A DNA stretch of 63,743 bases from Amoebophrya sp. A120 (taxonomy: Eukaryota > Protista > Dinoflagellata), in contig CAJINV010000005.1 in assembly GCA_905178155.1 (NCBI GenBank), positions 5,793,754-5,857,496 of the forward strand, in the 5' to 3' direction. Position numbers and translations under genes: made by a program. Shown here piece by piece: positions 2,241 to 63,433 of this stretch; position 1 is the first letter of the stretch, and each line of letters opens with the position of its first letter. The notes beneath the pieces were generated by a model. That model searched no databases. It had not been told where the DNA came from and saw only the letters and a program-made list of their open reading frames with translations.

Positions 2241-3614
2241 TTATGCATGACGATGACATATTTTTTCACCTGTGTCGATGTCGACCTTGACGCCTCCATA
2301 AAACTGACAGCCGGGGGAAGGGCCGGATAAGCGTCGCCCTTCTCGCTGTCTCTTTTGCAACTGCTCTGTGACTTTGTGCGCTAGCTCCTCGGGCATTGCT
2401 GGGTACTTCTCGGGCACTTGCGGTGGCAAGGGTTTGTATTCGTACCAGTAGGGGTCCTCTTGTGTTACTCCCAGCTGCTCTCGCGCACCGTCGGTAAGAC
2501 GACTTGGTTCCAGTCGACTAGGACTACCCTCCGGCGTGGGTCCTGGTAGTATCTCCTGGAGGATCGGTTCGAAGCGCCGCAAATGCTTTCCAGCTTGCTC
2601 GGCCTGGTAACCTTCCTCGCGTAACATCGAGGACACAGCTGACCCGAACTGCTGCGGAGGAAGTCTCTTCTCCCAATAGTTCGCCAGCGTAGGCGGTCCT
2701 TTTTGATCACCGTCTCGCTGGATGTCGGACCATTTGCCCTTGTTCGAATACCCAACCTCTACGCGAATGTTCAGCGCCCGACTGGTTAGCGCTTGGTACA
2801 GCTTCAGTTTCAGTGCGTTGTCCTTGTGGTGAAACAGGTCGTGCTTCCGGCTATGAACATCCGGCGGGTCTTCGTTGCTCTTTCCCTCCTTTTTTGATGC
2901 TAGTTCATCAGCAAAATACGACAAGGAGCGGCGCTTGAAGTCAAGGAAGGTTGCCCAGTAGTTGTTGGCGAATTTTTCGCGCATTAATAAATCAGCTTTT
3001 CCTTCGCGTTTCAATTGCCGCCACTCTTTTTGCTTGTGCTTATGGTTCTTAATTTGTTCTTGATAGTCGTGGGAGTCGTGCACTATCTGTTCGCTTAGTC
3101 GCCCCTCGGTGATCGCGTTGGCCGCGTCGAAAACCTGCTTGTGGGTTGCAGCGTAGTCGATGGGGAGGCGGTGTCCGTGTAGAATCGCGTCCGCGTCGTG
3201 CTGGGGAATAAGCTCGCTCCAGAGGAGTTTTTGCACTCCTTCCGCGCTTAGACCCGCGGACGTTCGCAAGCCCTGCTTCAAGGTGGGTACTTGTTCGTGA
3301 GGAAATGCGTCGACTCGATTTCCGACAAAGTTGTGTCCGCTCTTCTTTTGCTTTCCCAGTTCATCGACAAACATACCGACTTATGCAGTGCAAAAGTATC
3401 GTACTCGTATAAATTTAAATGCAGGAAGGTCTTGCAGCATTACAAATTTCTTTGTCAAAGGGGCAAATCAGCATTGCAAATTTTTATGCTGAGAAAATTT
3501 GTAATGCATCCATTTATACGAGTACGATACATTTGCAGTTCATACGACTAGGTGCGTCACCGGTTCGGAGTACTTCTTCACCAACTCAGAAACCGAGTAC
3601 AGCTTGTCGGGGCC
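2241..3614 (-). CDS. Hypothetical protein, interrupted by introner 3382-3544
   Basis: 377-aa ORF extends in frame (DKLYSVSELVKKYSEPVTHLVG-MFVDEL) after removing the element plus one CGACT; canonical acceptor tttgtttcatAG at 3615-3616. Confidence 0.65.
3382..3544. mobile_element. Introner family A (TIR TATGCAGTGCAAAAGTATCGTACTCGTAT)
   Basis: ~30-bp TIR; TSD CGACT at 3377-3381 and 3545-3549; excision restores frame. Confidence 0.92.
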
Positions 3615-3889
3615 CTATGAAACAAAAAAAAAAAGCTATAGCTAGCAGCACAATATTTCTGCGAAGCACCTAGCAGTTGCAAAACACGCATTAAAACCGG
3701 CAAGTAGAGGATAAAGCTGTATCATGCAAGACATTCAGAGGAAGCATAGCTTCATGACAATGGATAACGACAATCCTCTTTGCGAAGTAGATGTAGATCC
3801 CCTTTCAGCCTACAGCAGCAATCGCATTGCAAGTCTAGTAGTTTCTTGTCATGCGTCACGCATTCGTGTTGCAGTTGTTGGAGTCGATA

Positions 3890-4702
3890 CTAGAGTGTAC
3901 TTGGGTTTATTAACTGTAGCATTTTTTTCTCGCAGCATAAATCCGTTTCGAACACATGCCGGATGTTGCGATGATGGTGAGAGTGCCCGTTCCGCCCGCT
4001 TCCATGCTTGTTATGCGCTAGGAAGGTGTGGTAAAATCCCTCGCTGAATTCCTTTCGAAAATACTGCAGCTGGGCAAACCGCGCGTCCTTGAAGTCGTGG
4101 ACTATCGCTTCGGTAATGGATTTCACTTTTCGTGACTTTGCCGCCCACTTCCAGTACTCGGTGGCCAGCTTCGCAGCCGTTGATTGCGCTTCGGCGTTCT
4201 TCACGTGGGTAGGGTCCTCTGATGTCGCAAAGAACTGCGCGATGCGCCTCTTTATGTCCACGCCCAGTTCGTACTCCTTATCGCTCTTATGCTGGAAGCT
4301 GCTGTCATCTACTTCCGGTACTTGTTGCCCCGGGGCAGCTGCTGAAGCAGGAGCAGCTGCTCTCGCCGTGCTCGCCGTCCTCCCCGCCGCGGCGCTATTC
4401 CCATTAAGCAGGTTACTCATTCTATCCATCATGGTGGGGTTGCTTCCTGGTTTTTCTTCCCGGGAGGGCCGCTGTGTTCCAGCCGCACCATGCTGCTGGT
4501 GTCCCGCTCGTGCTCCCGTGGTCGTGTGATGGGCGCCAGTCGTCGTGGGTGATTGCACTCTTGCACCTCCACGCGGTTGATGTTGCCCGCCGTTGCCGGG
4601 ATGCGCCCCAGAACCGCTGCTCCTCGGGGTTGCAGCTGCAGGTGGAGTAGGATTACTTCCATACGACGTTCTGCGTCTGGGGGGCATGATGAAAAAAATC
4701 AC
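3890..4702 (-). CDS. Hypothetical protein exon, possibly the 5' part of the 2241-3614 gene
   Basis: 270-aa ORF with a disordered N-terminus and a helical-looking C-terminal half. Confidence 0.5.
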   Translation of the reverse strand: MIFFIMPPRRRTSYGSNPTPPAAATPRSSGSGAHPGNGGQHQPRGGARVQSPTTTGAHHTTTGARAGHQQHGAAGTQRPSREEKPGSNPTMMDRMSNLLNGNSAAAGRTASTARAAAPASAAAPGQQVPEVDDSSFQHKSDKEYELGVDIKRRIAQFFATSEDPTHVKNAEAQSTAAKLATEYWKWAAKSRKVKSITEAIVHDFKDARFAQLQYFRKEFSEGFYHTFLAHNKHGSGRNGHSHHHRNIRHVFETDLCCEKKMLQLINPSTL

Positions 4703-5556: not shown

Positions 5557-7532
5557 TATCAAATGTAAAAGTGTCTGGGTATGGAAGACGCCCAGAAAAG
5601 CGCCGGAAGTGCGTCGCTTTTATTTACGTGAGATTTGCGCGAGATTTGCGCGAGATTTAGAAAATAGTAGGAATATTGCCAAATCCGTCGGGCAGCTTTT
5701 TGAGGCGGGAACCCCCTCCGTGAATATTTTCGAGTATGTTCGCGAATGTGCTTGAGTTGAAAACATTCACGGAGGGGGTTTTCGCCTCAAAAAGCTGCCC
5801 GAGTTGGCAATATTATTAATATTCAGGAATATTTATTGGCGAATATACTTGAAAATATTCACGGAGGGGGTTTTCGCCTCAAAAAGCTGCCCGAGTTGGC
5901 AATATTATTAATATTCAGGAATATTTATTGGCGAATATACTTGAAAATATTCACGGAGGGGGTTTTCGCCTCAAAAAGCTGCCCGAGTTGGCAATATTAT
6001 TAATATTCAGGAATATTTATTGGCGAATATACTTGAAAATATTCACGGAGGGGGTTCTCGCCTCAAAAAGCTGCCCGAGTTGGCAATATTATTAATATTC
6101 AGGAATATTTATTGGCGAATATACTTGAAAATATTCACGGAGGGGGTTTTCGCCTCAAAAAGCTGCCCGAGTTGGCAATATTATTAATATTCAGGAATAT
6201 TTATTGGCGAATATACTTGAAAATATTCACGGAGGGGGTTTTCGCCTCAAAAAGCTGCCCGAGTTGGCAATATTATTAATATTCAGGAATATTTATTGGC
6301 GAATATACTTGAAAATATTCACGGAGGGGGTTTTCGCCTCAAAAAGCTGCCCGAGTTGGCAATATTATTAATATTCAGGAATATTTATTGGCGAATATAC
6401 TTGAAAATATTCACGGAGGGGGTTTTCGCCTCAAAAAGCTGCCCGAGTTGGCAATATTATTAATATTCAGGAATATTTATTGGCGAATATACTTGAAAAT
6501 ATTCACGGAGGGGGTTTTCGCCTCAAAAAGCTGCCCGAGTTGGCAATATTATTAATATTCAGGAATATTTATTGGCGAATATACTTGAAAATATTCACGG
6601 AGGGGGTTTTCGCCTCAAAAAGCTGCCCGAGTTGGCAATATTATTAATATTCAGGAATATTTATTGGCGAATATACTTGAAAATATTCACGGAGGGGGTT
6701 TTCGCCTCAAAAAGCTGCCCGAGTTGGCAATATTATTAATATTCAGGAATATTTATTGGCGAATATACTTGAAAATATTCACGGAGGGGGTTTTCGCCTC
6801 AAAAAGCTGCCCGAGTTGGCAATATTATTAATATTCAGGAATATTTATTGGCGAATATACTTGAAAATATTCACGGAGGGGGTTTTCGCCTCAAAAAGCT
6901 GCCCGAGTTGGCAATATTATTAATATTCAGGAATATTTATTGGCGAATATACTTGAAAATATTCACGGAGGGGGTTCTCGCCTCAAAAAGCTGCCCGAGT
7001 TGGCAATATTATTAATATTCAGGAATATTTATTGGCGAATATACTTGAAAATATTCACGGAGGGGGTTCTCGCCTCAAAAAGCTGCCCGATTTGGCAATA
7101 TTATTAATATGCAGGAATATTTATTGGCGAATATGCTTGAAAATATTCACGGAGGGGGTTCTCGCCTCAAAAAGCTGCCCGATTTGGCAATATTATTAAT
7201 ATTCAGGAATATTTATTGGCGAAAATGCTTGAAAATATTCACGGGGGGGGTTCTCGCCTCAAAAAGCTGCCCGAGCTGGCAATATTATTAATATTCAGGA
7301 ATATTTCTTGGCGAATATACTTGAAAATATTCACGGAGGGGGTTCTCGCCTCAAGAAGCTGCCCGCCTTGGCAATATTGTTAATATTCAGGAACTTTCAA
7401 CGGATTTGGCAATATTCCTAATATTTTTGGAAATCTCGCGCAAATCTCGCGCAAATCTCACGCAAATAAAAAGCATGCATTTGCGGCGCTTTTCTGGGCG
7501 TCTTCCATACCCAGACACTTTTACACTTGATA
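5557..7532. mobile_element. Large family-B TIR element (1976 bp) with minisatellite interior
   Basis: ~130-bp TIRs starting TATCAAATGTAAAAGTGTCTGGGTATGGAAG; TSD TGTTC at 5552-5556 and 7533-7537. Confidence 0.92.
5757..7392 (+). repeat. 92-bp tandem minisatellite, ~18 copies
   Basis: Period 92 (attcagga at 5821 and 5913); units nearly identical, diverging at the right end; one inverted partial unit at ~5689-5743. Confidence 0.97.
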
Positions 7533-8922: not shown

Positions 8923-11900
8923 ACGAAGTTACTCTCCTGCTGCCAAAGCCCCCCGGATCACCATCATGATTTAGATGCTGCTCCTCTAGTTCTTTATGTT
9001 GTAGTGCAACAAGCCCCCCGCTCGCCTGATCAGAACGACTGTCATGCTGCTCTCCACGACCAGCACCAGGTCCATTCGGCCCAATGTGTTGCTCTTGACA
9101 TCTTTGACTATTCCCGTTGGTCTTCAGCGGCGATACGCGACCTGTTTTATTCGTCGTGGTTCCACTTGTGCCACTCCCACTTCCTGTTCCTTTATTTCCG
9201 CCGACATCGAACCGCAATAGCAGTTCCTGCGCCAAGCTGGCTATCAGCTTCTTCGTCCGGACGCAGTACACTTGCCCTCTGACCATCGCTCTCGCATTCC
9301 CGATGGAATAGCAGCTATCCTGTAGTAGAAAAACTGTCATCATCTACAAAGGTCTTATGATGCAAAAGTCCAAGTGGATATAGACTTACAAAGCCTACCT
9401 ATAATTTCGGTTGTTGCATTTATTAATTTTCTGTAGCTCGTCCACCCAAACCGTATTGACAGACTTTAGGAGCCCGCCACCTCGCAAAACAAATTTCCTT
9501 CTTTCCGTGAACGTGCGTTCCTCGTCCTTGCGCAGAAACTACAGAATTCTAAATCGTAATACTGCATGCGGACTGTTGACAAGAGGGACCATTTTTCTGC
9601 AGGATAGCAGCTACAATCGAACAACAACCATTCGTCCGCCCGCCAGTTCCAGGCGTCTTTCTCTTTGATGCCCACGTTGATGTCTCTTATTTCTGTACTA
9701 TGTAATGTCGCTTGCGTGGTTTGCGTTTGTCCGTTCAACATGTGCCGCTGCTCGGAAAAATGAAAACTACTTCGGAAGGAGGGCTCATGAAACCACAAAG
9801 CGTGGTCGAGCGAGACCATATTTTTGACTCTTATCCTGTGTAAAAGCATCGCATTCGTATAAATGCAAGTCTTGCATCACAAATTTTTTTCTGAAGGCAA
9901 ATCAGCATTACAAATTTTATTTTCAATGCATTTATACGAGTACGATACTTTTGCAGTTCTTAATTCTCCTGGTCCGACGATGGTACCCGCCGTTCGGTGC
10001 GAACGCGCAGAGCGCGAGGTTGGTATCCGTCATGTGTGCCAGAACGCTCTGGTGGTACAGCATGTGCTGCGAGTAGAGGTTCTCGCTCGAATTTGATGGA
10101 TCAAGACCCACATTTTTTTTCCCGTCTGCAACACTCGTCGTCGAGACCACATCATCAATCCCGTACTTCGTCTTTACGAACTATGAAAGCCTCAGGTTGG
10201 AAATCATCAAAGTGAAAATAATTTGTAATGCAAAAAAACGCTTCCAGTTGGAGCGCCGTTTCTAGTCGGCGCATGACAAATTTCCCGGGCACTCAAAGCG
10301 TGTCTGTCATGCTAGTTAGGCAAAGGGGTGCCGTTCTCATATGCTAATCAGCAGCCCAATTCTGAACCCGTAGAAGCACAATAAGTAGTCGGCCCCCAAT
10401 GCGTTCTCTGCAATGCAGTCTTTTTGGTGTCGCATTTCATGCATCACAAATTATTTCCACTTTGAGGATTTCCATTCTGAGAGTGTCATACAAACCACAC
10501 CAGCCTGCCAGGGTTATCCCGGGTCCCGCCGGGCCAGTCATCGGAAAGGATCTATCCTGTGCAAAAGTATCGCACTCGTAATTGCAGTCAAGCATTACAA
10601 ATCTCTTTTTAAGGTAAATTCGCATTACAAATTTTATTTCTCATGCTGAGGAAATTTGTAATGCATTTATTATACGAGTACGATACTTTTGCAGTTCATA
10701 GGATCGTTACTGGCCTTATGTCCAGCGGCGTGGGGCCGCCACGGAAATCCCGGTGGTTTTTTACGTCGATCTCGTCAACACGGGTCGTGGAGGAAGTGGA
10801 AGATGAACTTCCGGCGTCATGGCTAGGCGCTGCAGGAGCTCCTTTGATGTTGTGCTTAGTATTTTTCTCCACGTCTACTTTGTCCTTCCCATACACTTTC
10901 AGAAACGAGGCAAAAATCACTTCGTCATATGGCTTCAGGCTGTTGATGGCACGTTGCTCTAGTTCTTCCTTGTCGGAGGTTGAAGATGACGCAGCTCCTG
11001 TGTGGTCGAGCATCAAGCTGCTCCTGCCGACGTCCGAGCCCATCATCCCACCTGCAGCTCTTTCAGTCGGCGGAACAGCAGCGCGCGTGGGATCGAGATC
11101 GTGGGTCTTGTTTTTCCCCTGCTGCAATACCGCCAGCACATCCGCCGGGAACTGTTCGCAGTAGGAATCGGAAGGAGCAGGAGGTCGTGGAGTGCCATTT
11201 GGTCTTGTTCTACTATCGGTGCCGCTAAAGATGTCCTCAGGGTAGTGTGCAGCACTTTCACCTCCTCCTTTTATTGCAGCTTTGCTGGTACTACTAGATG
11301 CAGCTGTGGTGCGTGTGCCATCTCCCACTTCCTCTGCTGCCTGACTGGACACAATGCACGAGAAAATCACCCTGCCCTTCTATTAAATGGAAAAATCCCC
11401 CCACCCCATATCAAACACGAAACTTGTGATGCTGTATTTGGGTACACAAATCGACTTGTAGTGCTAGAAGGCCAAGAGCCGCAGTTGTGACCTCGTTTGC
11501 AGGTAATTTGCAATGCTGTTTCCCACTTCCAGTTGCTTCCTGTCATGCTGAAGATGCAAGGCTTCCCCACGCCCCCCAGCACTACAGTCCGCATCTTTTC
11601 CACCCTTCTAGCATGACTAAGCTGATTTGTAACTGCAAATCTGCATCACAGATTTCCGTTTTGATATGGGGAGGGGGGATTTTTCCTCACAATACCTTCT
11701 GCAGCGCGTCCACGCATCTCGTCGAAAAAGACCGGCCGTCGCGGATCACCCGCACGCGGTACGTTAGGTCTTCCGAGAGCGACCCCGTTCCCAGAAAGTA
11801 CGCGTGCAACGAGTGGGCGGTTTTGCGCTGAGGATTGTTTTTTTTCAACGTGGTCGCGAAATGGTAATGGAGATTGATGTCTACTGTGAATTATATCTGA

Positions 11901-16684: not shown

Positions 16685-17916
16685 TCAAGCTGTGTTGTTT
16701 GTGTTGTCACTGCTGGCAGCCAACGAAATTTCGAGACAAACCGGATCGCCTTCGCGGTACGGAGTTTGTTGTTCTCTAGAGCGCAGTATCAAATGCAAAA
16801 GCGTCTGGGTCTGGAAGAATGCATGTTTGTCATGCTTGTCTGGCATGAATCTTTGAAATCTGTCATGCACGTTACCCAAGAGCTCCATTTTTCTGTGATG
16901 CAGAAACGCAGTTTGTCATGCAGAATAGGCAACACCTAGAAGCTCAGAAACTTGTCATGCTAAGCCAGCACTTGTGGCCTCATCATGAGACGCCACCCAG
17001 CATCACAAGTTTCCAGACCCAGACATTTTTACATTTGATACGCAGGACAGACTTCGTTCTTGTGCAGCCGGACGAGAACCTCTGCTTTTTCTGGTTCTCT
17101 GTGTCCCCGAAGAACCAAACGCTGCCGCTCAATGCGACCTCCACGAATCTTTGGATATCCACTGCAAAAGAATCGTACTCGTAGTAATTGCAAACATGCA
17201 TTACAAATCTTATTCTCTTAAGGTAGATCAGCATTACAAATTTGATCTCTCACGCTGAGGAAAAAATTTGTAATGCATTTATACGAGTGCGATACTTTTG
17301 CAGTTCATATTGCAGGCCCGCTCGCAACGGGTTCAGCAGGACGCCGTTATTTGTCACGTGACTGATTTCCTGTGCAAAAGTATCGTACTCGTACTAATTG
17401 CGTTTATGCATTACAAGTCGTGTTTGTTAAGGCAAATCCGCATTACAAATTTAAAGTTGTAATGCTAAGTCCATTTGTAATGCAATTTATACTAGTACGA
17501 TTATACCTTTGCAGTTCATAACTGCTCGTTGAAAACAATAGCGAGGCTTTGCTGTATTGTCTCGCCGTGGAAAGAATGACTTTGTCACGGAGGCTACTCG
17601 TCGAAGTTGTAACAATAGAAGAAGATGAACTGCTGTTCACCGAGGAGAGCACACGATCTCCCACCTCCAATTCGATCAGCTTATACCGCCACTGATAAAT
17701 GGTTTCATCCAGAATCTTGTCGTAGCAAGAGGTGTTTGACGTGTTGCTACTCGATAAAGTCGCTGCTGTCTTGGTCTTGCTCCCGGTCGCAGCTGCTCCC
17801 GTCGTCGTTTCTGGTTTAGAAGCAGTTGTCTCGTCGCTGGCCTGTATTTCGTTTGTAGTGGTGCTTCGCTCGTGTTCTTGTTCTGCTTCCCAGGCGGCTC
17901 CGCGTTGACTGTCCAC
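16685..17916 (-). CDS. Hypothetical protein (~217 aa or longer) with three introners
   Basis: Joins FSTSS-HVTNNGVLLNPLRAGLQ-RFVEVAL..KSVL-RSREQQ all in frame. Confidence 0.7.
16787..17040. mobile_element. Introner family B
   Basis: TIR TATCAAATGCAAAAGCGTCTGGGTCTGGAA; TSD CGCAG; near-identical inverted copy at 58896-59147. Confidence 0.93.
17156..17309. mobile_element. Introner family A
   Basis: TIRs; TSD TTGGA/TTGCA. Confidence 0.88.
17366..17520. mobile_element. Introner family A
   Basis: TIRs; TSD ACTGA/ACTGC. Confidence 0.88.
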
Positions 17917-18073
17917 AGATGCAGCAGCATTAGGATCATATCGTGGTCGGGCCGAAATGGTATGAGTTTGGAAAACCTGTGATTGTTTTTTTTTTTTTTC
18001 GCTTCTGGAGTTGTAGAGTACTATCTATGGAGTGCAGCATTCATTCAAAGGAGGCACAAGAAGAATGAACTCT

Positions 18074-18637: not shown

Positions 18638-18866
18638 AGGTTTACTGTTGTTCGGGACGTATCGTGACTAAGAAGAACGAGGCTCACACGAGCGGCCCAG
18701 AGTCATGATGGGCAATTTATTGGCTACACAAGTCCACAAGATTTGGTTGTTTTTGAGCCTGACAATTTGGGATCGTAGTGCAATGTATGGTGATGCTCAG
18801 CAGGTGGTAGCGCAGCCGCATAAAAATCACACATCGACCATCCTGAGCTGAAGCTGCCAGACAGCA

Positions 18867-20021: not shown

Positions 20022-20473
20022 AACGTACCAAATACTTGATCACTCCTATTCACACGTCAGCATGACAAATTCATATAGCATTCTCTTCACTTAGGTCGTT
20101 GGCAAAATCGGTGATGCATACATTTCCTGTGAATGATGTGATGTAGATGTTGATGTACGGGTGCTGGAAGTGCAACTTTGTATTGCATAACTGCTTCCAG
20201 CTCAGCCCGTACTTCTCGCACTTCGTCAGACCGCGTCCGCACCTTCGACAGCTCGTTTTCTGCAGGTTCCTATGCATTGCAAGTCAAGTAGTAAGTATCG
20301 CTCCTATCGTACTTCTTGATGCACTTCTACGTACCTGAACAAGTTGCACGATGCATTTTCCCAAAGGTCGGAAAGAGAAAAGTGGAATTTGCCACGCAGG
20401 TGCAGACTTGGGTGAGAAACCAAATCTGCCATGCAAAAACCAAAAACGCAGAAATTTTACTTAAAGTTAAAAA

Positions 20474-21319: not shown

Positions 21320-21546
21320 AGCCCGCAGCTGCAGCCGCCGTCGGTACGCGTCGATGTCTTCTGAGTGGTCTTCTTCTTGGTGTTATGCAATACAAATTTC
21401 GATTTAATACCGGCGTCTCCGCGTTCCCAATGCATCACAAAAGTTTGTATTTCCTAGAGCATGCCACTTGTATATCTATCAAGCTTTCTAGGATCTGCGG
21501 GGAAACTTTTTTTATGCAGAGACCGCAGCTTTTTGTTTTTCTTCGT

Positions 21547-24777: not shown

Positions 24778-25088
24778 AGTACTATTGCTCCCCGGCAGCG
24801 CCGGATGAACTCCGACGGGGCGTTTCTTAGTCGCTGGCTCGTGTTTAGTCAGGTATGGGGACGACGAAAAAGCAGGTCCTCGTGCAGCAGGAGCTGCTTG
24901 CTATGACAGGAAAAAAACGTTGCTAGTGTAAATTTGTGATGCGCAACATGCAAGGTGATTGCGTCTGTCATGCTTGGCATGCGTCGTAGGGTCCATCAAA
25001 GGGCGTTTTCACGTACTATCTGCGCATGACAGGGTTTTGCTGTCATGTCAGACAAATTTGCAATGCTAATCCTCCAAGAAAGTTACAC

Positions 25089-44200: not shown

Positions 44201-47200
44201 TCCCCAGTTCGACTGCATTTTTGTCGTAGTTCCCAAACTCGAAAAAATCTGCGTAAGCGTTGAGCAACTTCCTTCGCGTCGCCGTCCGGCAAAACTTTCT
44301 CGCTTTGCGAAGGTTGGTGATCAGTTCCTTTGCGAAAAGACGGTCGGAAGGACTGAGCAAGACTTCCAGAAGGGTAGCTGCAGCTGCATCGGTCGTCGTG
44401 TCTGTTGATCTTGATGTGCCTGCGTTGCCGATATGATCTTTGCCTCGTCCGTTTGTATAAAAATCTGTAGAACTTCTTCCCACGAGCACCGGCCTTTCCC
44501 TCATCAAGAACTTGCAGGCAGAACGCTCGACGGGATTCGGAATGCTGGTCGTGCTGAGGCCGGCTCCGGCTCGCGGCTGAAAATCTAGTCCCAGACAATC
44601 TGTATCTACTGGGCAATACCCTCCACCGGGATGGAGAATCTCTCGAAACTTCTCCTCTTCGAAAAGGATCGACGGGCGCAGCTTACGATCTTCAACCGTG
44701 GCCGCCGTGACTGCCGACGCGCCGTTCTCGTTCATCGTATCAAATAAATCACCTTGCGGTCGTGGCGAAGATGAAAATGAAACTGAAGCCGAAGCATGAT
44801 TCGCGTTGTTCTGCCCTTTGCCGTTTTTTCCCGCCCACCTCGCTTGATGTAGTCCACCTGGAGGACTCTCATCATCCACGACCGCAAATGAGTCGTGCTT
44901 CGCTTGCTTCGTTATCGTTGCGTGCTTTTCCCGATCGAAATCCGGATTTGGATAAACCCAAGAGCGGTGCGTACTCAACGCGTCTTGGAAAAAGCAAGGG
45001 AGTCCACGTCGTCGCTCCTCTTCGATATTATCGAATCCCGCGGCACGGAGATAGGCCACCAAGGATGGATATCAAATGCAAAAGTGTCTGGGTCAGGGTC
45101 TGGAAGAAGTCCGACATTTGTCATGCATTTTTTACATCTACAAAAAAGGTCTGGAATGCACACAGAGCATGCCAAACTCTGTGGCAGCTTCTCCTTCTCC
45201 ATGCCTATTCCGCATGACAAATGCGTTCTTCTGGAGACAAAAATCGGGCACCTTTTGCTGACTACGCAATACAGATTTTTGCCTGTTCCAGATGAATCCG
45301 CTTCACAAGTTGCAGTCTTCCAGACGACCCAGACATATTTGCAATGCATAATGGACAAAGAGGCGGCATGTCGCGCTTCTCGTCCTTGCTGTAAATGACG
45401 AACCGGCAGAGCTTCTCGTAGAGGTACTGGGCGTATCCTATGTAAAAACGTCCCCACCCCATAATCAAGATGGAGATTTTGCAACACAAACCTAGAAGTT
45501 TTGCGAGTTACGCATGACAAGTTGCAGGCTGTAGTGTAGTGCAGTTTAGCAAGGGAATCCGCATAGCAACTCCATCCCCTCATCCTGTTTACAGCATTAC
45601 AAGTTCCAAAACACGACTGGAACTGCCTCTCTTGGGGATGCGCATCACAAGTGCTCCTGTGCTTGCTAATCTGCATGACAACTCTGGGGCGGGGACGTTT
45701 TTACACAGGATAGAGCGCGGTGCTTGTTCCTTTCGTTCTGCATCTGCGATAGAAACGTCTCGTAGACGAAGTGTTTGAATTTCGGCTCCGGAATCTGCGG
45801 GAGGAATTTCACCTTAGAAGAACGACGACAAGCTGCAACATGTGCTGAGGTAGAACGAAAGGTGTTGTTCTTGTTCGTGCTCAAAACAACATCCTCGTAG
45901 TTCCCACAGTTTTCGTAAAATTTCATGACGTAGTCGAAAAACAGCCGCCAATCGTGTTCGTCGCAAGCCCAAAAATAATCTTCCAGGTACAGGTAGTACA
46001 GTTTTTTCTTCAGACCGCTCTCCCGGGGTAAGCTCACTGGCTCGGAAAACAAAAGCTGAAACATTTCGAAGATGTAGATCGCCTCGGGAGAGTGTCGGTT
46101 GAAGCGGAATTTCAAAATTTTCGCTCCAAAAACCGCCTTTTGCAGGTAGTGCGCTTGTAAGTGGTCTTTTTCCACTTGGGTGAGCTGGTTCTGGTGCGGC
46201 TTCATATTACGCATTATACCTTTTACACGCTCCTCGGCGCCGTTGTTCTCGTCTAGCTTAATGTTCTCCTCAAAATCATTGTCATCTTCCGAATCGTCCT
46301 TCGCAAAACAACAAGTTTGAATTGGATCTAAATTGAAACTATCGACGGCCGATCCGTTTCTGTCGCAGAAAAGTATGACAGTGCACAACTCCCCCTCTTC
46401 CTCATTTGTATAGCATGAGCGGCAATACAAGCATCAGCAAGAATGCCGGTTTTGCATGACAAATCTGCACTGGATTGTAGTTCTATTTGGGCTACTAGAA
46501 CTTGTCATGCAAACAGCGCCAAGAGGCAAGGGGTGGATTGGGTATTTTGCATGACAAATAAGGGGGATCCCGGGATTTGTGTACTGTCATAAAAAGCTGC
46601 TGAAAACCACAAAAACTTGGTTTGATTTGCTCCTTCCTGATATCGGTGTAAAACTCTACTTCGCACTCATCTTTATTCCACAACCGGAGCTCCTGCTGTT
46701 TTCCATGTGGAGCTCCTGCACTTTTGGGGTATTTGTATTTCGCCTCCAACTCCGCCTTTGCCTTTTCGCGCATGCCGGCAACTGCGGTAGTGATGAGAGG
46801 AGGGAAAGATGAAGTAGACTTGTTGATTGAACGAAGCGGCGGACTGCGGCTGCGATCTAAGTTCTTTTTACTTCTTTGCTCCTTCAGTGTCTTTTGTTCG
46901 TCACAAAATTGCCTGAATTCGTTGTAGGGCAAGACGTGTGGATCCAGGTAGCAGGGGTCCACTATCGGAGCAGGTTGCGTCTTCGTCTTTCGTTCTTCTT
47001 CCGCTTCCCGCAGCTGCTTTTCCTTCCGAAGCTTTTTCTGACCTTGCTTTGTATTTCCCGAGTAGTCTACTTCTCCTCGTCGTCCAGGACGATTTCGGGC
47101 GCCTGTGCGATCTTTGTAAGAAGTGTCACACTTGGTGGCGCCGTCACTTCCACGACCTGTCCACCAGTTGATGTCGTTGCTCTTTTTCTTGTTTCCCCGC

Positions 47201-50696: not shown

Positions 50697-51520
50697 TTAC
50701 CTGTTGATTCCATCAAATCCCGCGGAAGCAGCTCCCGGGGCATCTTGGTGCTGCCCTCCGGCGGTAGTGGTTGGCACGGCATGGGCGTGCGGATGCTGCC
50801 AAGAAGGATAAGCCGTGGACAATTCCACACTATTCACGTTAGTGACACCGTTAGCACCAGCACTATGACCATGGTGCTCAAGCCCTGCTCCACCAACGTT
50901 TTTACTGTGTAAATGCACCGCTTTCTCAATGTGTTGATGCACGTTGACCGCCGCGGATCCGAACAAAGTGGCATTACCGCCGGCATTGTTTATTCCCGCA
51001 TTTCCACCCGCATTTCTCTCAAACTGCAATTCCGCGGACGGACTAAGCCCCCTAGACGCTACTAACGCCTTTCGCATCAACAAGAAGTTATCGACTTCCG
51101 GCTCTAAGCTGTTCGCTTTCACCACCCGCATGCCGAGAGATAATTCTAGCCGTTCTTGATCCACGATGGCGTTCGCTTTTTTGGTCCGTTCCAATTTGTG
51201 CTTCAAAATTTTCAGCTCACTCGCCTTTCTCGTGTTTTTTTCGCCGAAAGTGTGTTTCGTTTCGTTCACCTTCATATGCATTGCAAAAGTATCGTACTCG
51301 TATAAACGCATGACAAATTTCTTCAGCATGAGAGATAAAATTTGTAATGCGGATTTACCTTAAAAAGAAGATTTGTAATGCATGATTGCAATACGAGTAC
51401 GATACTTTTGCACAGGATACTTCTTCGCGAGGAGTTCGATTTCTTCCTCGATTTGCTCCTCCTTCTCGAGCAGTTGCTCCAACTCGATTTGCATGTCGGG
51501 GAGTTCCTGTTGCTCCAGAT
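50697..51520 (-). CDS. Coiled-coil protein exons joined across introner 51275-51419
   Basis: IELEQLLEKEEQIEEEIELLAKK-VNETKHTFGEK..LKHKLER in frame. Confidence 0.65.
51275..51419. mobile_element. Introner family A
   Basis: TIRs; TSD CTTCA/CTTCT. Confidence 0.9.
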
Positions 51521-51742
51521 GATGGATTATGCAACACAAATTTATTCCCGTACATGTACCATATGCATGACAATAAACTTCGCTGAAAACTTGGAGCGTC
51601 AAAGTTGGCATGCTGACCAAGATTGAAGGCAAGTTTTGTCATGCAGAAGCAGCATTTGTACGTATACGGGAAATTATTTACTGTGGATATGGATCTCCTG
51701 CTGAATTTGTTTCACCTGGTGCTGGAGTGTTAGAAAAGACTG

Positions 51743-52064
51743 TATCAAAATGAAAAATCCTCCCACCCCATATCAAAACGGAAATTTGTGATGCTGATTT
51801 GGGGCCACAAATCAGCTTTGTATTGCAGAGAGGCACTGCGGCCAGGACCCCAGGCTAGGTAGAGGCGCACGTGTCTAGCTGTTCAGCATGGCAAACGACT
51901 CCCCTTTAGGCCCAGCAGCATGGCAAATTGCTTTCATAATGGGGCGGAAGCTTCTGCCCTTGTCTTCTTGCAAGACAGATGTGATTTGTGACCTCAAATC
52001 CGCAACACAAATTTTTCTAAACTTACCTTTTCAATATGGGGAGGGGGGATTTTTCCTCTCAATA
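51743..52064. mobile_element. Introner family C (322 bp)
   Basis: TSD GACTG; inverted same-length relative at 60636-60957. Confidence 0.92.
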
Positions 52065-53860: not shown

Positions 53861-55824
53861 TCACGCCTGGGCCGCCGCGGCCACCTATCCTGTGCAAAAG
53901 TATCGTATTGCATTTATGCATTACAAATCTCTTTCTCAAGGTAAATCAGCATTACAAATTAAATTTGTAATGCTGGGGGAATTTGTAATGCATTTATACG
54001 AATACGATGCTTTTGCAATTCATACCACCGCCGCGCCGCCCATGCAGAAGCAGAACACGATTATGCAATGCAAAAGCATCGTACTCGTACGAATTGTAAC
54101 CATGCATTACAAATCTTAGTCCTTAGCCAAATCAGCATTACAAGTTGCATTTTTGTTCTTGGAAAAATTTGTCATGCAATGACTACTAGAACTAGTACGA
54201 TACTTTTGCAATGCATAACGATGACGCCAATGCAACAGAGAAGAGGGATCAGGGTGAGCCAAATGATCATGCAGTAGCACTGGTAGGCCAACGCTTCGAC
54301 GCTGGCGTTCCACGCGTCGAGCGCCGCGATGTACTCCGGGTCATTGACGTATGGATGTGTCAGGATTGAAATCGACAAAGTTGAAATGATTTGCCATGCA
54401 TAAAATGCAAGGCATGCAGTGCCTGTGTTGCCGGGATGGCGAGTGAGGCAGATTGTGAGCCTATTTAAGAAGCACGACAAAAGCAGTCTTCTGTGCCCAA
54501 ACAGCATGACAAATTGGATTTCGGTGCGCCGAAAATTTGTCATGCGCCGCTTGGAAATTGGTCTTCCAACTGGTAGCCATGTTATGCATGGCAAATCATT
54601 TCAACTTTGTCGATTTCAAACCTGACGCTTCCATATCACGCCAAGTGCGTAAGCACTCGGGTCGGGTTCCGTCTTGGCGAGCAAGGTGTCACCATCGATA
54701 ACCGCATCAACATCCGAGTCAGCACGAAGATGCTTTTTGTTTTGCACAACTGCTGTCGAACTCTTCGCACCTTCGGCGGTTTCATGCTTCTATCATGCGG
54801 AAAAAAAGAAAAACCGTCCCCACCTCCGCAGAGCTGTGGCCATGCACATTTCGATTTATTGCAACTAGTGGAACTGGAACACTTGTAAAAATGCGCATGC
54901 TCCCACGACCTATGAGACGAGGCATTTCTGGTTGTGTGTTGGTACTATATGCTGTAAACAGGACATTTGATCATGCGGCCGTCGGTGCTAAGAAAAGGAC
55001 CAGCACCACTGTGGTGCGCGACTCTCACAAGCACTTGGTGATCTTTTGCGCTGCAGATTTGTTCCCATTATGAACACTCTGATCGTGTGGGGACGGCGCT
55101 TTTAAACATTTTACACAGGATAGCTTTTGCCCCATAATCATCGTCGCCAGCGCCTGCTGCTCCTGCAAGTTCTTTTTCGCTTTGTTCATGGACAAAACCT
55201 TGCTCATATCAAAGAAAAAAGTGTCAACGTTAAAAACGGTTTTCACAGATTGCAGCTATGCATGACAAGTTTTGCCTAGCATGCGTGCTATGCAATACAA
55301 ATTGAAATTTGGCCAGCTTTTCTGATGCATTTAGCATTACTGCATCACAAATTAATTTCGTTAACATTAACAGTTTTTCCAGGGATAGCTCACGACATTC
55401 ACACTTTCCTTGTTCGACGCGCCCAGTTTTTTTGTCCCAGCCCGACCAGCTTTGTTCATCGCTTCTTCAACAGCCGTTTTCTTCGTAGCCGTCGCGTGGG
55501 AGTGGTCCAAGACGAGTTTGGATGTACCCATAGACATATGCAGTGCAAAAGTATCGCACTCGTATAAATTGCATGACAAATTTGCTCAGCACTACAAATG
55601 AAACTTCTCATGCTGATTTACCTTGAGATAAAGATTTGTAATGCATCATGACTGCAAGAATTACGACGAGTACGATACTTTTGCACAGGATAAGACAGCG
55701 CATTGGCGGTGCCGAGGAAATGTTGAGAGGTTCCACCCGCGATCGCGAGGAGCAAGAACAGTCGCCTTGACGAAGAGCAACTGGATGCAACCGCGGAGAA
55801 AAACGTCGCGGGTAATAAAGCCAT
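53861..55824 (-). CDS. Small membrane protein (~227 aa): hydrophobic N-terminus, C-terminal Cys-rich TM helix; six introners
   Basis: All six joins in frame (684 nt); ends EPDPSAYALGVNDPEY..CYCMIIWLTLIPLLCCIGVIVFCFCMGGAAVAAAAQA*. Confidence 0.8.
53886..54024. mobile_element. Introner family A
   Basis: TIRs; TSD CCACC. Confidence 0.92.
54062..54217. mobile_element. Introner family A
   Basis: TIRs; TSD ACGAT. Confidence 0.92.
54350..54635. mobile_element. Introner family H
   Basis: ~54-bp TIR; TSD TGACG/TCACG. Confidence 0.9.
54791..55122. mobile_element. Aged family-E introner
   Basis: CGTCCCCAC / GTGGGGACG; TSD GCTTC/GCTTT; join MGQK-HETAEG. Confidence 0.8.
55207..55387. mobile_element. 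Introner, distinct TIR (TATC...GAAAAA.TGTYAAYGTTAA)
   Basis: TSD GCTCA; join NVVS-KVLSM. Confidence 0.85.
55537..55692. mobile_element. Introner family A
   Basis: TIRs; TSD AGACA. Confidence 0.92.
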
Positions 55825-56913: not shown

Positions 56914-58469
56914 TCACCCCCGCGGACAACACGAGGCAAGAGTGCAAAGGTATGCATTGCAAAAGCATGATCGCGCTGCGATGTAGTAATCGCATTTACA
57001 ACACAACAAGCTCGACAAACGAAATCTGTCATGCTTATTCACCTTGATGGAAAGGCGATTGGGATTGCGATTACTACGAGCGCGACATTACCTTTGCACA
57101 GGATAAACAACAGCACAAGACGATCCCGATAATAATCAGGAGGGGGATCGTATCCATCGGAAATATTATTTCCCGCACACGTACAAAATATTCCGTAAGT
57201 ATCTGCATGACAATAACGGGTTTCCTGCAAACCTATTCAGTATGACAAATGGCATGCGGGGTCAAGTTCAAGTTGCTGCTGCTGGGAAAATGAGAAATTC
57301 AAATTTGTGAGGCATTTTTACTAATGTGTACGTGTGCGGCAAATTTTTATTTGTAGTCCATAGACCGCAACAACGGTAATGATGATGGCGTAGCAGCAGC
57401 AAGCGGCTGCCTTGACTTTTTCGTCGAATTTTTCCTTCGCCTCGATGTAATCCGGATCATCTATCAGAGTGCACAACTCCCCCTCCCCCTCATTTGCTTT
57501 TGCATGTTGGCATCAACAGCATTACAAACACCAGAACAGGTGGACCCTGTGCATGACAAGTTCATGTGGCGGGTGTGTAGTACTGTTTGGCTTTGGACTT
57601 CCGGAATTTGTCATGCACACTGCGCCACAAAGCAGCAACTGGATTGGTGTTCTTGCGTGACAAATGAAGGGAAGGAGAACGGGGAGTTGTGCACTGTCAT
57701 ATCATCCTCGCCCTTCGGATAATCAGAAGGATCCGGCTCCTGCAGGTGGAGGTTTTTGCGTATCCCGTGTAAAAACGTTCCCACCTGAGAGCTGTCATGC
57801 AGATTTGCAATGACAAGAACATTTGTGATGCGCAGCCCCATGTTGTTGACAGGCATTTCCTATCGTGTTTTGGAATTTCTAATGCTGCGAACAGAGTAAT
57901 CAGCTGGGTTTGTCGTGATGCGGCTGTCCTTGCTAACCTGCACTACATTACGGGTCATGCGTGACTAACAAAGCTTCTAGGTTTCTGTTGCAAAATCCCC
58001 ATCTTGACTCGTCTGGGGTGGGGACGCAGCTTTTCCTCAGGATATTGCGCAAGTCTTCACTATTCACCGTGAAAGTTACACCGGGTCGTCGACGCTTATG
58101 AACTGCAAAAGTATCGCACTCGTACTAAATTGCGTTTACGCATTACAAATCTGTTTTTTAAGGCAAATCCGCATTACAAATTGAATTTGTAAAAATGCTG
58201 AGTCCATTTTTGTAATGCAATTTATACTAGTACGATACTTGCTTTTGCAATGCATATCGCTCCTCCTCGTCGTCGTTCCCACCAGTCGCCTGGAAGGTAC
58301 CCACCGCAAGTTGGATCCGCTCCCCCAAGGTGAGACGGGTGCGGTGATGTACCATCGTGCCCGTGTTCGTCGCGGTGGAAGTCTTCTTCAGGACTTTGGT
58401 TTGATGTTCCTGATAGAGTTTATTTTGCCGTTGCAAGCTAATTCCATTTTTTGAAATAAGTAGGTACAA
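56914..58469 (-). CDS. Paralog of 53861-55824; small Cys-rich TM protein with five introners
   Basis: In-frame joins give QEPDPSDYPKGEDDPDY..CCCYAIIITVVAVPLLIIIGIVLCC..; 5' end uncertain. Confidence 0.78.
56951..57105. mobile_element. Aged family-A introner
   Basis: TATGCATTGCAAAAG..TTTGCACAGGATA; TSD eroded (AAAGG/AACAA). Confidence 0.75.
57151..57362. mobile_element. Introner family I
   Basis: CCGCACACGTAC / GTACGTGTGCGG TIR core; TSD GATCG/GACCG. Confidence 0.85.
57462..57701. mobile_element. Introner family D
   Basis: TIRs; TSD TCATC. Confidence 0.92.
57761..58044. mobile_element. Introner family E
   Basis: TIRs; TSD TTGCG. Confidence 0.9.
58097..58256. mobile_element. Introner family A
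   Basis: TIRs; TSD ACGCT/TCGCT. Confidence 0.9.
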
Positions 58470-58741
58470 AACAACCGAACAGAAATGAAAAACTCATGCT
58501 GGATGATGATGTCGACCTCGACGTCCCTAGCCATTTTCAATCATAAGGAATAAGCAGTTTATGCAGGTTATTTCGCAGAGTATGTTCTTTTACTTACCTG
58601 AGTGACGAGATCCATGCTCACCCTCACGGCATGAGCAAACAAAGTCTATCCGAATGAAAAAAATCTTGTCCTTCCCACGACCTCAAAACTGAAATCCCCT
58701 TGTTTCCACTTCCAGCCATTCCATGCATAATGCGCTATACA

Positions 58742-59211
58742 TCAAACCCCACGCAGCGCAGCCTTCATGGAATTGGAGATGATTTCTTTCTCTACTGCAA
58801 AAGCAGCTGGTCGAAAGATGAAAAGTGACGATCGCGAGCAAGAAGATTTTTTCACCTGGGATACAGCGCAATTCATGCCCATTCCCGCCACGACCTATCA
58901 AATGCAAAAGTGTCTGGGTCTGGAAACTTGTGATGCTGGGCGGCGTCTCATGATGAGGCCACAAATGCTGGCTCAGCATGGCAAGTTTCTGAGCTTCTAG
59001 GTGTTGCCTATTCTGCATGACAAACTGCGTTCCAGCATCACAGAAAGATGGAGCTCTTGGGTAACGTGCATGACAGGTCTAAGAGTCATGCCAGACAAGC
59101 ATGACAAATATGCATTCTTCCAGACCCAGACACTTTTACATTTGATACGATCGCACTGAGCATGATCTTCCGGAAGGCGGAAGATGTCGAGAAGGAGAAA
59201 GACGGCACCAT
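58742..59211 (-). CDS. Short signal-peptide-like ORF, possibly the 5' exons of the 56914-58469 gene
   Basis: MVPSFSFSTSSAFRKIMLSAI-VAGMGMNCAVSQ after excising 58896-59147. Confidence 0.45.
58896..59147. mobile_element. Introner family B
   Basis: TIRs; TSD CGACC/CGATC; inverted near-copy of 16787-17040. Confidence 0.92.
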
Positions 59212-60547: not shown

Positions 60548-61615
60548 TTACGCTTGCCAAAGCCAAAAAAAAACAAAAATCCCGATGATGGCTAGGACGA
60601 CAATGACGATGGCGACCACGACGGCGATCCACCAGTATCGAGAGGAAAGATCCCCCCTCCCCATATTGAAAAGGCATGTTGCCGAAAATTTGTGTTGCTG
60701 ATTTGAGGTCGCAGATAGCATTTGTTTTGCAAGAAGGCAAGGGCAGAAGCTTCCGCCCCATTATGGAGGCGATTTGTCACGCTGTTGAACCTAAAGGGGA
60801 GCCGCTTGCCATGCTGAACAACTAGACGCATACGCCCCTACCTAGCCTGGGGACCTGACTGCAATGCTTTCCTGCAATACAAAGCTGATTTGTGTACGCA
60901 AATCCAGCATCAGAAGTTTCGTTTCGATATGGGGAGGGGGGATTTTTCCTTTTGATAACCAGGTGCATTTGTTTTGATCCAAATCACAATCCACGGTCGG
61001 CGTACACCCTCTTTTCATGTCGGCCGAGGACGGGTCATCCGGGTATTTTTCCTCGTCGTGCGGTAAGCATTTGATCTTATTGTCTGGATTTTTCTCGTTG
61101 AAGCCCCTCACCAAATCCTTGCACAGAAACTTGCACTCTGGTCCACCCGGGCACCCGTCGAATCCTTGTGCGATCGGTGTCGGGGGTATCCAGGAAAAAA
61201 CATCCATCCCCTTCCATTTTTTGCATGACAGATAGTGGATTTCATGCATGTTCTGCATGACAAATTGGATGGGGATGGGTGTTTTTTCCTGGATAGGGGG
61301 GTTTTCGCCCTGGTAGCACTGATGTCGGTCGTCGTTCTGTGGCGTTGGGGTGCCGGTACGTCGGCCAATCTTGTTTCTCTGCATGTTGTGGTAATTCATG
61401 TCGATCTCCAGCTTCTGTTGCCGGAATTCGGTTCTCGTCGTCTTCCCAGTTTCCGTTTTCCTGCCCATTCCGAAGAGGACGAGCTTGTGGTCAAATAAAA
61501 GTACATTCCGAAAAGTCGTAGTCAGCAAAAATGCCGCGACAGAACCGCCAAAAAAGGAACAGAAGGGGCCGCGTCGCGGCTTTATGGTAGCGCTGCGAAC
61601 AATGGGGGTGGGCAT
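60548..61615 (-). CDS. Small Cys-rich protein with C-terminal TM helix (~208 aa), two introners
   Basis: Excision of 60636-60957 gives NKCTW-WIAVVVAIVIVVLAIIGIFVFFWLWQA*. Confidence 0.78.
60636..60957. mobile_element. Introner family C
   Basis: TIRs; TSD ACCAG. Confidence 0.93.
61187..61295. mobile_element. Minimal introner family G (109 bp)
   Basis: TIR TATCCAGGAAAAAACAYCCATCCCC; TSD GGGGG. Confidence 0.92.
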
Positions 61616-61900
61616 GATTGGAGGTACTCTAGCGGAGGACCGCTTGTTCTTTGGGCGGGGGTTTATTTTTCATTTCTTTGGGGCTGTTGCTGGTCCATGT
61701 GCGTACTTAAGTAGTTTTGTCGCGAATGACCTATGCCTTTCTTGCTACCTCTTTAGTGTCCTTACTGACGAAACCAAACAAATTGCTTTAACCGAGGAGG
61801 CCGTCGCAGATTATTCTTTCGTGCCGACGATGACGAAGCACGTCAGTAAACAAAAAAGGCGAAGAGCAGTAGTACGAGCCTCCCGAGTTTTCTTTGCGCT

Positions 61901-63220
61901 TTAATACCGAGGAGCTGCGCCAATTTTGCCGCGGCCACTGCAAGAACGAGGAAGATGAAACCGATTAAAGTGAACCTCACCGCGTAGCACACTTCTCATG
62001 ATAAGAACCGAATAGCAACGAAATTGGTCGTTTGGGAATGTCGTGTCGTGCGATTCACAGTTACTGTGCGCGATTGGTTTGAAAATGTGAACGAGCACTA
62101 CTCCCGGCGCACGCCCCGCGACAGGGTCCGCGGCGTCGGCAACATGAGCGAGCGAGGAGATGAAGTTATCTCGCGCGGATTCATGTTGACTGCCCACCGG
62201 GTGGTCTGACCAAAACTCATTTAGCATTTGATGCACATCTCCCAGCCATTTCCTGAAATCTGCAGCGGTCGTTTCACCCTGCACTCGGAGCGGGCCCCAA
62301 AGAGTGCTCCGAGTGAATGCAAGTGTCGGGAACCCGGTGCCCCACACGGAGCGTTCGCCGCTCTGCTCATCTTGCTGCGCACCAAATACGTCCAGGCTCA
62401 ATTGGCCTAACAAGGTTTCGAGGGCGGCGAGCGGTTCGCTGACTTTGCTAATTTCGCTTTTAAGCTCTTGCCTTGCTTTGTCAAGCCACGTCTCGAGATC
62501 GTTCAGGCTTGGCACGGCCTCGTGAGGTCCGGCTTTCTCCTCGACGGCCGGGATCTCCCGGATGATGGCGGAGCTGGCAGCTTCAAAAAAATAAACTGCG
62601 TCAAGCAATTTCTCGGTGGCAACATGAATTTTCCGCACATATTCCTTGTCACGTGCGAGATCAGAAACCCACTTCCGCAGCTTCTGGTCTTCGTCCGCCT
62701 CGCTCGAAGACGCGGTCGACCTGTGCAGCGTCTTCTGCAGAAAATTGGCGCTTTCCCCTTCTCGCCGATTGCTGGGAGCAAGAACTTCTACATTGCCGTC
62801 CACATCCACTTCCGCCGGTGCTGCAGAGGTGCTGTCGGAGGGAGCCGTCTGCCCGCGCCGAGCAAGGAAGGGCCTCTTCCTGTGGTCGGAATGAGTGGAA
62901 GTGGTGGAGGTCGAGCTCTTCTCGGCTTCGTCCTCTAGTTCCTCGCCCGTGTTGCGAGGGCGGCGAGCCAGGAAGGGCTTCTTCGCCTGGTCAGCGCCGG
63001 CGTCGACAGAGGTCGTGGAGGCTTTCGGCGTCGTGCGGCGGACCGCCTGCACCACTCCAGTCGCGTTCAACATCATGGACCCGAAGCCAGCGGCGGAGGC
63101 CGCGGCGCCGGCGGCCGTGGCTTTCTTGTTCCGCACGTGACAAGAACCGTAGTCCCGACCCAGTTTTTGGTAGCGCTGCATCACCACCTGCTTGCGCTTG
63201 CCGGCCCGCTTCGCATAGCC
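61901..63220 (-). CDS. Hypothetical protein, 3' exon
   Basis: 470-aa ORF whose first ~31 codons lie inside a family-D element; helical-looking C-terminal half. Confidence 0.65.
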   Translation of the reverse strand, partial: GYAKRAGKRKQVVMQRYQKLGRDYGSCHVRNKKATAAGAAASAAGFGSMMLNATGVVQAVRRTTPKASTTSVDAGADQAKKPFLARRPRNTGEELEDEAEKSSTSTTSTHSDHRKRPFLARRGQTAPSDSTSAAPAEVDVDGNVEVLAPSNRREGESANFLQKTLHRSTASSSEADEDQKLRKWVSDLARDKEYVRKIHVATEKLLDAVYFFEAASSAIIREIPAVEEKAGPHEAVPSLNDLETWLDKARQELKSEISKVSEPLAALETLLGQLSLDVFGAQQDEQSGERSVWGTGFPTLAFTRSTLWGPLRVQGETTAADFRKWLGDVHQMLNEFWSDHPVGSQHESARDNFISSLAHVADAADPVAGRAPGVVLVHIFKPIAHSNCESHDTTFPNDQFRCYSVLIMRSVLRGEVHFNRFHLPRSCSGRGKIGAAPRY

Positions 63221-63433
63221 TATAACAGTGCACAACTCCCCCTCCCCATCATCTGTATAGCATGAACCAACGGCAACACAAGCATCAGAAAGAATGCCGG
63301 TTTTGCATGACAAATTGGCACTGGAATATAGTGGTATTTGGACTACCAGAACTTGTCATGCAAACAGGGCCACGAGGCAAAGCGAAAGCGTGGAGTGGGT
63401 ATTTTGCATGACAAATGTGGGGGAGGGGGAGTT
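63221..63433. mobile_element. Family-D introner with interrupted right TIR
   Basis: Aligns to 46374-46591 but breaks after GGGGGAGTT. Confidence 0.8.

Follow-up and report, generated by a model that had tools for sequence, protein, structure and literature searches.

Introduction

For the dinoflagellate Amoebophrya sp. A120 about 30,000 introners in some 1,950 families have been reported, for which, as far as the available text goes, neither a mobiliser nor a splicing mechanism is known; Farhat et al. 2021 argue there against a general mobilisation by a transposase (PMC7789003). In the present work we analyzed a stretch of 63,743 nucleotides of the A120 genome (contig CAJINV010000005.1, positions 5,793,754 to 5,857,496; hereafter the window), in which short intron-like elements of otherwise unrelated sequence share the internal motif GCATNACAAR. 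We propose that this motif is probably a double-stranded-DNA site of 10-12 bp for one shared transposase, which would move all of the families.

The elements of the window correspond to the A120 introners in their terminal pattern (TAT, seven variable bases, AAA), the 5-bp direct repeats, the length of 110-320 bp, the non-canonical ends with the 5' dinucleotide N-T in 9/9 listed pairs and the co-oriented genes (available text of PMC7789003 and PMC12130899; 41 of the 58 A120 rows in the family table of the latter were covered). Strain A25 has a different terminal sequence (TTA). From this matching anatomy we infer that they are the published introners. The available text of both papers does not mention a cross-family internal motif, its spacing or a fixed cut after the fourth base of the target site duplication (TSD). 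The strings GCAT and ACAAA do not occur in the text of PMC7789003, whose logo figures S19 and S25 might still show the motif.

According to the available part of Gozashti et al. 2025 (PMC12130899), an 808-bp A120 family with 5-bp TSDs, TA/TA termini and integrase-like homology has been classed as Ginger. IS3EU and GingerRoot elements, which have an integrase-type transposase, share with the window elements TA...TA termini and the absence of a target sequence preference (available text of PMC10045372 and PMC6839031). Their TSDs are, however, usually 6 bp long and the terminal inverted repeats (TIRs) of GingerRoot measure 100-150 bp, whereas here the TSDs have 5 bp, transcript-like contigs skip the element plus 5 bases, and the TIRs span 25-60 bp. 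Membership is not claimed because of the 6-bp duplications of these groups. The nonconventional introns of euglenids also have non-canonical ends, TIRs and TSD-like repeats, and the signal described in the available text is a CAG/CTG pair in the terminal stem with a fixed strand (PMC11282704). Here, in contrast, the shared sequence is internal, multiple and strand-free.

Subterminal transposase-binding repeats are found in the hAT elements Ac/Ds and Hermes, as TnpA sites in En/Spm, as TnsB sites in Tn7 and as the end sites of Mu. They consist of a short motif which lies in both orientations inside the ends, is related to part of the TIR and is kept by non-autonomous copies. The sites in the window elements likewise occur in both orientations, are ordered relative to the ends and are related to the TIR. 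In contrast to these systems, one motif extends here over 12 or more families whose TIR cores and bodies are unrelated, and it fills the whole element with pairs spaced at 31-33 bp, the elements are also introns, and binding is a prediction. A literature search for introners with subterminal transposase-binding sites gave no match. Measured against the available text of the cited papers, the motif is a real and apparently unreported feature of known elements and a variant of subterminal repeats.

Results

A motif shared by families with unrelated bodies

A search for pairs of TAT...ATA arms between flanking repeats, followed by manual curation, yielded 44 elements in the window. They start with TAT[C/G], end with the complement and are flanked on both sides by a 5-bp TSD; the TIR pattern of TAT, seven variable bases and an A-run is present, with families F6 and F7 lacking the A-run. 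Being short, non-coding, multi-copy and bounded by TIR and TSD, they have the features of miniature inverted-repeat transposable elements. Long open reading frames (ORFs) and two CT..AC introns place the genes of the window on the minus strand. For comparison, the TIR pattern was used to collect 147 loci from one other assembly (555 kb and 394 elements after removal of overlaps); this search enriches for family F0, and its control gave 6 decoy matches in 372 kb of reversed sequence. The 394 elements and the 42 window elements shorter than 700 bp group into 12 families with 4-191 copies each, besides 2 pairs and 42 singletons. Among the 308 family copies with strong arms, the TSD matches at 5/5 positions in 248 and at 4/5 in 45.

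The motif has 90 strict matches in the window (52 on the plus and 38 on the minus strand), as compared to a mean of 1.33 and a maximum of 5 in 100 shuffles. The elements (12,466 bp) hold 84 of them, or 6.7 per kb, with at least one match in 36 of the 44. In 28,152 bp of coding DNA there are 2 (0.07 per kb), which corresponds to a roughly 95-fold higher density in the introners; the other DNA (22,726 bp) contains 4, and the two canonical introns of the window (399 bp) contain none. An earlier note on this DNA had reported the motif at twelve positions, all of them correct within 1 base, and its statement that the motif is rare in exons holds as well. The two coding matches, at 28864 and 4007, are isolated, as chance would give. 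A weight matrix broadens the motif to about W-GCATBACARR-T and finds 172 sites within the elements and 39 in the remaining 51 kb; position 5 is degenerate, and T4, A6 and C7 are conserved.

All 12 families carry the motif. At a score of 10 a site is lacking in 0/390 family members and in 6/46 of the other elements. There are 2-7 sites per element in family-specific layouts, and layouts and orientations vary both between families and within F0. When the sites and the outer 14 bp were masked, 64 of the 66 pairs of family consensuses failed to beat all 60 shuffles; the exceptions are families 5/6 (z 6.8) and, marginally, 2/8 (z 3.3). The motif is thus common to families with unalignable bodies, as the note had maintained. 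In all families the two arms of one copy differ at TIR positions 4-10, where the same few variants recur across families, which suggests end exchange or convergence.

Conservation and decay of the motif

Private substitutions per site amount to 0.030 in the motif core and 0.074 at the other internal positions (observed/expected 0.45), and the free position 5 behaves neutrally (observed/expected 1.11). This conservation across non-aligning families agrees with the proposal of the note that the motif is a cis-signal for one common trans factor. In the youngest copies the core already shows a ratio of 0.65 (21 changes, 32 expected). Since the nearest relatives are at the median 86% alike, private changes reflect both drift among active copies and decay once a copy has landed. 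TSD mismatches (0.20 per element) put the time since landing at 0.02-0.04 per site, and for neutral decay after insertion this clock predicts 244-437 core changes (summed by hand), as compared to 366 seen. Selection during transposition with release afterwards is compatible with these numbers, and a role for the host also fits.

The site density falls with decreasing arm similarity from 1.60 to 1.55, 1.36 and 0.90 per 100 bp, and in the same order 1/177, 5/185, 3/58 and 6/32 elements lack an internal site (15/452 in total). The set of 452 used for this purpose adds 16 candidates that restore a reading frame; 5 of these come from overlapping loci, and each control pattern gave 1-8 decoys. The motif therefore decays, though slower than the arms. 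One point speaks for the note: old singletons retain more of the motif than uniform neutral decay would predict. In a TSD-stratified analysis the core rate rose by 0.1 per unit of internal divergence and by a third as much in TSD-mismatched copies, with a wide interval. By context, taken in crude classes, conservation was 0.025 in 29 poorly coding copies and 0.032 in 226 coding ones. Two copies at one insertion site, which would date the decay directly, were not found among the elements.

The note had also placed the motif in four gaps with decayed TIRs. The motif is present, but three of the gaps have recognisable ends: 24902-25111 (position 24933) belongs to a 35-copy family, with a best relative of 93% and a perfect target duplication; 51528-51689 (51635) belongs to a 4-copy family and has a perfect duplication; and 19983-20189 (20060) is diverged, yet keeps a perfect duplication and its ends. 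At position 92, near the window edge, the element ends could not be delimited. Further stretches with motif-like sites or one TAT end, the second end not being fixed (25375-25600, 3617-3940, 1-260, 31030-31270 and 49680-49780), are probably older introners.

Geometry of the sites

Family-weighted distances between sites on the same strand peak at 31-33 bp, and none lie at 19-30 bp. A same-strand pair at 31-33 bp, or roughly three turns of DNA, occurs in 11 of the 12 family consensuses (1.9 expected; 0/200,000 simulations), and 297/436 elements have one at 30-34 bp. Midway in pairs of 31-32 bp a weak GCATGC-like half-site recurs. The distances can be fitted by a period of 10.5 bp with offsets of +3 for convergent and -3 for divergent pairs (mean cosine 0.32, null maximum 0.23), which would be expected if all sites faced the same side of the helix. 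Sites that point outward are found 29-34, 38-42, 50-54, 60-63 and 67-74 bp from the terminus, notably at about 31 or 40 bp; this ladder of about 10 bp has a p of 0.003 when one end of one element per family is counted. TIR positions 4-13 are similar to the motif (r 0.66, p 0.015), and some ends contain a full site. A constant spacing irrespective of orientation would be expected of a protein that binds double-stranded DNA as an oligomer. Judged from sequence, the geometry suggests a protein that binds double-stranded DNA, the most likely candidate being a shared transposase at subterminal sites.

Elements of the window and their splicing

The elements of the window are as follows (site numbers refer to the motif).

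3382..3544, introner F1, 3 sites; TIR and 5/5 TSD
5557..7532, long element, F0-like ends around a 92-bp tandem array, 0 sites; just past a stop codon, apparently non-coding
9316..9606, diverged singleton introner, 1 weak site; 5/5 TSD, excision restores minus-strand frame
9832..9962, introner F1, 2 sites 31 bp apart
10182..10490, introner F6, 5 sites
10553..10700, introner F1, 4 sites
11381..11694, introner F5, 5 sites
16787..17040, introner F0, 6 sites
17156..17309, introner F1, 4 sites
17366..17520, introner F1, 4 sites
18660..19000, diverged singleton, 3 weak sites
19983..20189, diverged singleton (20061 in the note), 3 sites, one at TIR positions 4-13; 5/5 TSD, frame restored
20271..20523, diverged singleton, 3 sites, none of them strict
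21384..21590, diverged singleton, 2 sites, one within the TIR
21906..22167, introner F0, 7 sites
24902..25111, introner F2 ("decayed" 24933), 5 sites; 5/5 TSD, 35-copy family
33345..33563, introner F7, 3 sites alternating at 48-49 bp
35518..35770, introner F0, 6 sites
37364..37643, introner F3, 5 sites in a single direction
37720..37893, introner F1, 3 sites
39596..40704, long F0 element, 8 sites, about 840 bp of unique DNA behind the left TIR
41362..41597, introner F7, 4 alternating sites at 47-49 bp
45070..45350, introner F0, 7 sites, spliced; skipped by contig X1
45434..45712, introner F3, spliced; on the pre-mRNA each of its 5 sites is TTTGT.ATGC
46374..46591, introner F4, 4 sites, spliced with one TSD copy
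51275..51419, introner F1, 5 sites, spliced
51528..51689, introner F9 ("decayed" 51636), 3 sites, spliced; 5/5 TSD
51743..52064, introner F5, 6 sites as three 32-bp pairs, spliced
53886..54024, introner F1, 4 sites, spliced; contig X4
54062..54217, introner F1, 5 sites, spliced; contig X4
54350..54635, introner F6, 5 sites
54791..55122, diverged TAT...ATA intron, 0 sites, splicing inferred; excision restores 60+60 codons
55207..55387, introner F10, 4 sites
55537..55692, introner F1, 4 sites
56951..57105, diverged F1-like element, 2 sites; TSD 2/5
57151..57362, diverged singleton, 2 weak sites
57462..57701, introner F4, 4 sites, spliced (skip 245 = element + 5); X1 and X4 have the joint, X5 has not
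57761..58044, introner F3, spliced (skip 289); on the pre-mRNA each of its 4 sites is GCAT.ACAAR
58097..58256, introner F1, 4 sites, spliced (skip 165)
58647..58863, TAT...ATA intron, 0 sites at weight-matrix score 8, spliced (skip 222 = element + 5); X1 and X4 both have the joint 58642-58865
58896..59147, introner F0, 6 sites
60636..60957, introner F5, 6 sites as three 32-33-bp pairs
61187..61295, introner F8, 2 sites 32 bp apart
63221..63432, introner F4, 4 sites; approximate coordinate, right end not fixed

Splicing was followed on the assembled, transcript-like contigs of runs X1 and X4, whose RNA nature is presumed and whose reads carry no strand information; this evidence spans 43600-63450, and elsewhere splicing is inferred from frame restoration. 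Run X8 gave just 90 partial reads on one element end and has no bearing on splicing. Four listed joints in X1/X4 skip exactly the element plus 5 bases, none of them being found in X5, and eight further elements are removed likewise (piece lengths worked by hand, with 78, 0, 150 and 32 bases left between pieces). These elements are removed from the transcript-like contigs at non-GT-AG ends, with one TSD copy retained. Mismatched TSDs (45429-45717, 58092-58261, 58642-58868) set the cut after base 4 of 5 in the sense direction, the junctions at 58647, 58097 and 45434 bounding it at 2-4, at most 4 and at least 4, respectively; Table S4 in the available material of PMC7789003, where 9/9 listed A120 pairs start with N-T, agrees with this position. 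Given this cut, the intron would begin with N-TAT[G/C] and end with four arbitrary bases. Such a start resembles a relaxed form of GUAUG, the yeast 5' splice consensus.

The 5' and 3' ends have an identical logo with TAT[C/G] nearly fixed, and changes are slightly fewer at the 5' end (14/800 vs 27/805, p 0.056). Splicing may be set by the element ends, that is by the last TSD base, TAT...ATA and four TSD bases, and the motif would not be involved. On the sense strand the terminal stem had no excess of G-U over A-C (89 vs 81 at positions 15-26, 82 vs 72 at positions 5-10), a count which is uninformative on selection for an RNA stem because arm mismatches may be inherited. Both of the two elements that were folded close the terminal stem (z -6.7 and z -2.4). 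An Rfam scan of the window gave 0 matches.

Strand use was analyzed in 249 inferred introns, namely elements which on excision leave a confident, restored reading frame. On their pre-mRNA 399 sites read GCAT.ACAAA and 500 read the complement, and the insertion orientation is 18:19 in F1, 9:7 in F3 and 38:61 in F0. Substitutions are alike in sense and antisense sites (112/3207 vs 105/3600, p 0.19). A spliceosomal branch point, expected on the sense strand only, near the 3' splice site and with a conserved A, was considered and rejected, as there is no 3' bias and both strands are used: 32 introns have only a sense-reading site near the 3' end, 42 only the mirror arrangement and 60 neither, and the would-be branch A is no better conserved (4/121 vs 6/135). 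No sense-reading site at all is present in 28/249.

Long forms and neighbouring repeats

The long element at 5557-7532 encloses about 18 copies of a 92-bp unit between its F0-like ends, and an inverted unit copy forms part of its long TIR. Around the single N at 7977, 7030-7976 and 7978-8920 form a head-to-tail repeat of about 0.9 kb, which is probably a scaffolding artefact. Two forms of 1.1 kb, 39596-40704 (F0) and L019 505-1608 (F6), consist of a near-complete short element and, within the TIRs, about 800 bp of GC-rich DNA that is unique; they are either parents of the short forms or insertions, and they gave no Pfam match. A direct repeat of about 35 bp (15010-15055 and 16425-16465) surrounds 1.4 kb of GC-rich DNA without a relative in the loci, a possible other mobile element. 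At the window end a 76-bp tandem repeat with an internal palindrome (63486-63743) adjoins the right end of an F4 copy, and a 27-bp stretch of this region recurs near 62070. In locus L065 (3277-17078) an exact inverted repeat of about 2.16 kb extends to the contig end over a host-like low-complexity ORF; it is likely an assembly palindrome and not an element.

Discussion

Of the two options named in the earlier note, a shared transposase fits the motif better than a role in splicing. Bound to the sites along one side of the helix, the protein would form an oligomer and bring both element ends together. Only copies with intact arrays would keep moving, so that the motif would be kept while the rest of the family drifts apart, and after landing it would be largely free to decay. 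The enzyme would probably be an integrase-type DDE transposase similar to those of Ginger, GingerRoot and IS3EU.

Several observations weigh against this proposal. No transposase was found in the 167 ORFs scanned (about 0.6 Mb), and none is reported for A120 in the available text of PMC7789003. The long elements at 39596-40704, 5557-7532, L019 505-1608 and L065 3303-17052 gave no transposase family, and 150 further ORFs gave host families only. Element 5557-7532, the only long one that is clearly non-coding, carries no site. The strands are not used quite equally (399:500; p 0.027 for the 38:61 of F0). C2 shows 13 changes, as compared to 25-49 from the TSD clock, and 26 low-arm singletons keep 0.72 sites per 100 bp, about twice the roughly 0.35 of a uniform-decay simulation. 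A lattice of 16-16.5 bp is about as good a fit to the pair distances as one of 10.5 bp (about 32 is a multiple of both), and F3 and F8 lose the 10.5-bp signal once the 30-34-bp pairs are removed. The best period of the outward ladder is 9.5-10, and inward sites show no ladder (p 0.30).

Searches outside eukaryotes gave, in a viral collection, 0 matches to the F1 TIR and 2 unrelated matches to the paired motif, and 5 prokaryote matches to a TIR pattern, all without the motif or a TIR partner.

The alternative that survives best, though we consider it unlikely, is a host DNA-binding protein such as a chromatin or looping factor which would be needed after insertion; it might mark the element on the DNA and recruit splicing during transcription, independent of orientation and dependent on helical phase. 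Strand symmetry and spacing would be the same as for a transposase. The motif retained in old singletons, at about twice the neutral level, the slope of the core rate, which within a wide interval is shallow and shallower still in TSD-mismatched copies, the deficit at C2, the reduced core changes already seen in the youngest copies and the lack of sites in the non-coding 5557-7532 speak in its favour, as does the report in the available text of PMC7789003 that U1 snRNA was not found in A120. On the other hand, 58647-58863 is spliced and 54791-55122 restores the frame without a site, elements lacking internal sites exist and density falls with arm divergence, and poorly coding copies are, in the crude classes used, as conserved as coding ones. 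Rather improbable is an extension in which the introns are defined on the DNA, a protein on the helically spaced arrays (a domesticated transposase or host factor) marking both ends in chromatin and directing a U1-less spliceosome to excise the element in either orientation.

A neutral relic of a single ancestral element or repeat unit behind all families is very unlikely. Common descent itself is likely, as all families share TAT[C/G] ends and 5-bp TSDs, and the half-site midway in the pairs would suit a repeat unit. But substitution in the motif runs at 0.45 times the rate of neighbouring positions, the spacers do not align, and the layouts and orientations, differing between families and within F0, indicate that sites have been gained and lost. 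Descent combined with selection belongs to the transposase proposal, and only neutrality is rejected.

The T-n-A-C core of the motif resembles the branch point consensus yUnAy. An RNA signal on the pre-mRNA for a splicing factor or guide RNA, which the note had preferred and to which this likeness, the 95-fold enrichment over coding DNA and the degenerate position 5 between conserved T4, A6 and C7 would lend support, has the least probability of all: the strands are about equally used and equally conserved, sense sites near the 3' end are no commoner than mirror sites, 28/249 introns lack a sense site, the would-be branch A is not better conserved, the one-way arrays of F3 are spliced in either orientation (45434 and 57761), the motif is absent in 2/2 canonical introns, the motif-free 58647-58863 (no site even at score 8) is spliced in X1/X4, site density drops as the arms diverge, and the spacing is in step with the turns of the DNA helix. 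Neither a signal at the RNA level nor a branch point is likely.

One motif and one geometry across the families imply that one protein serves all of them and that the families form a single system. Two jobs are thereby separated, the ends serving for splicing and the internal arrays for a step at the DNA level. The motif offers a concrete DNA bait for identifying the shared protein, and the site spacing makes the search for this factor directly testable. If the introns were defined on the DNA, a single protein-DNA code would permit the splicing of non-canonical introns in their tens of thousands.

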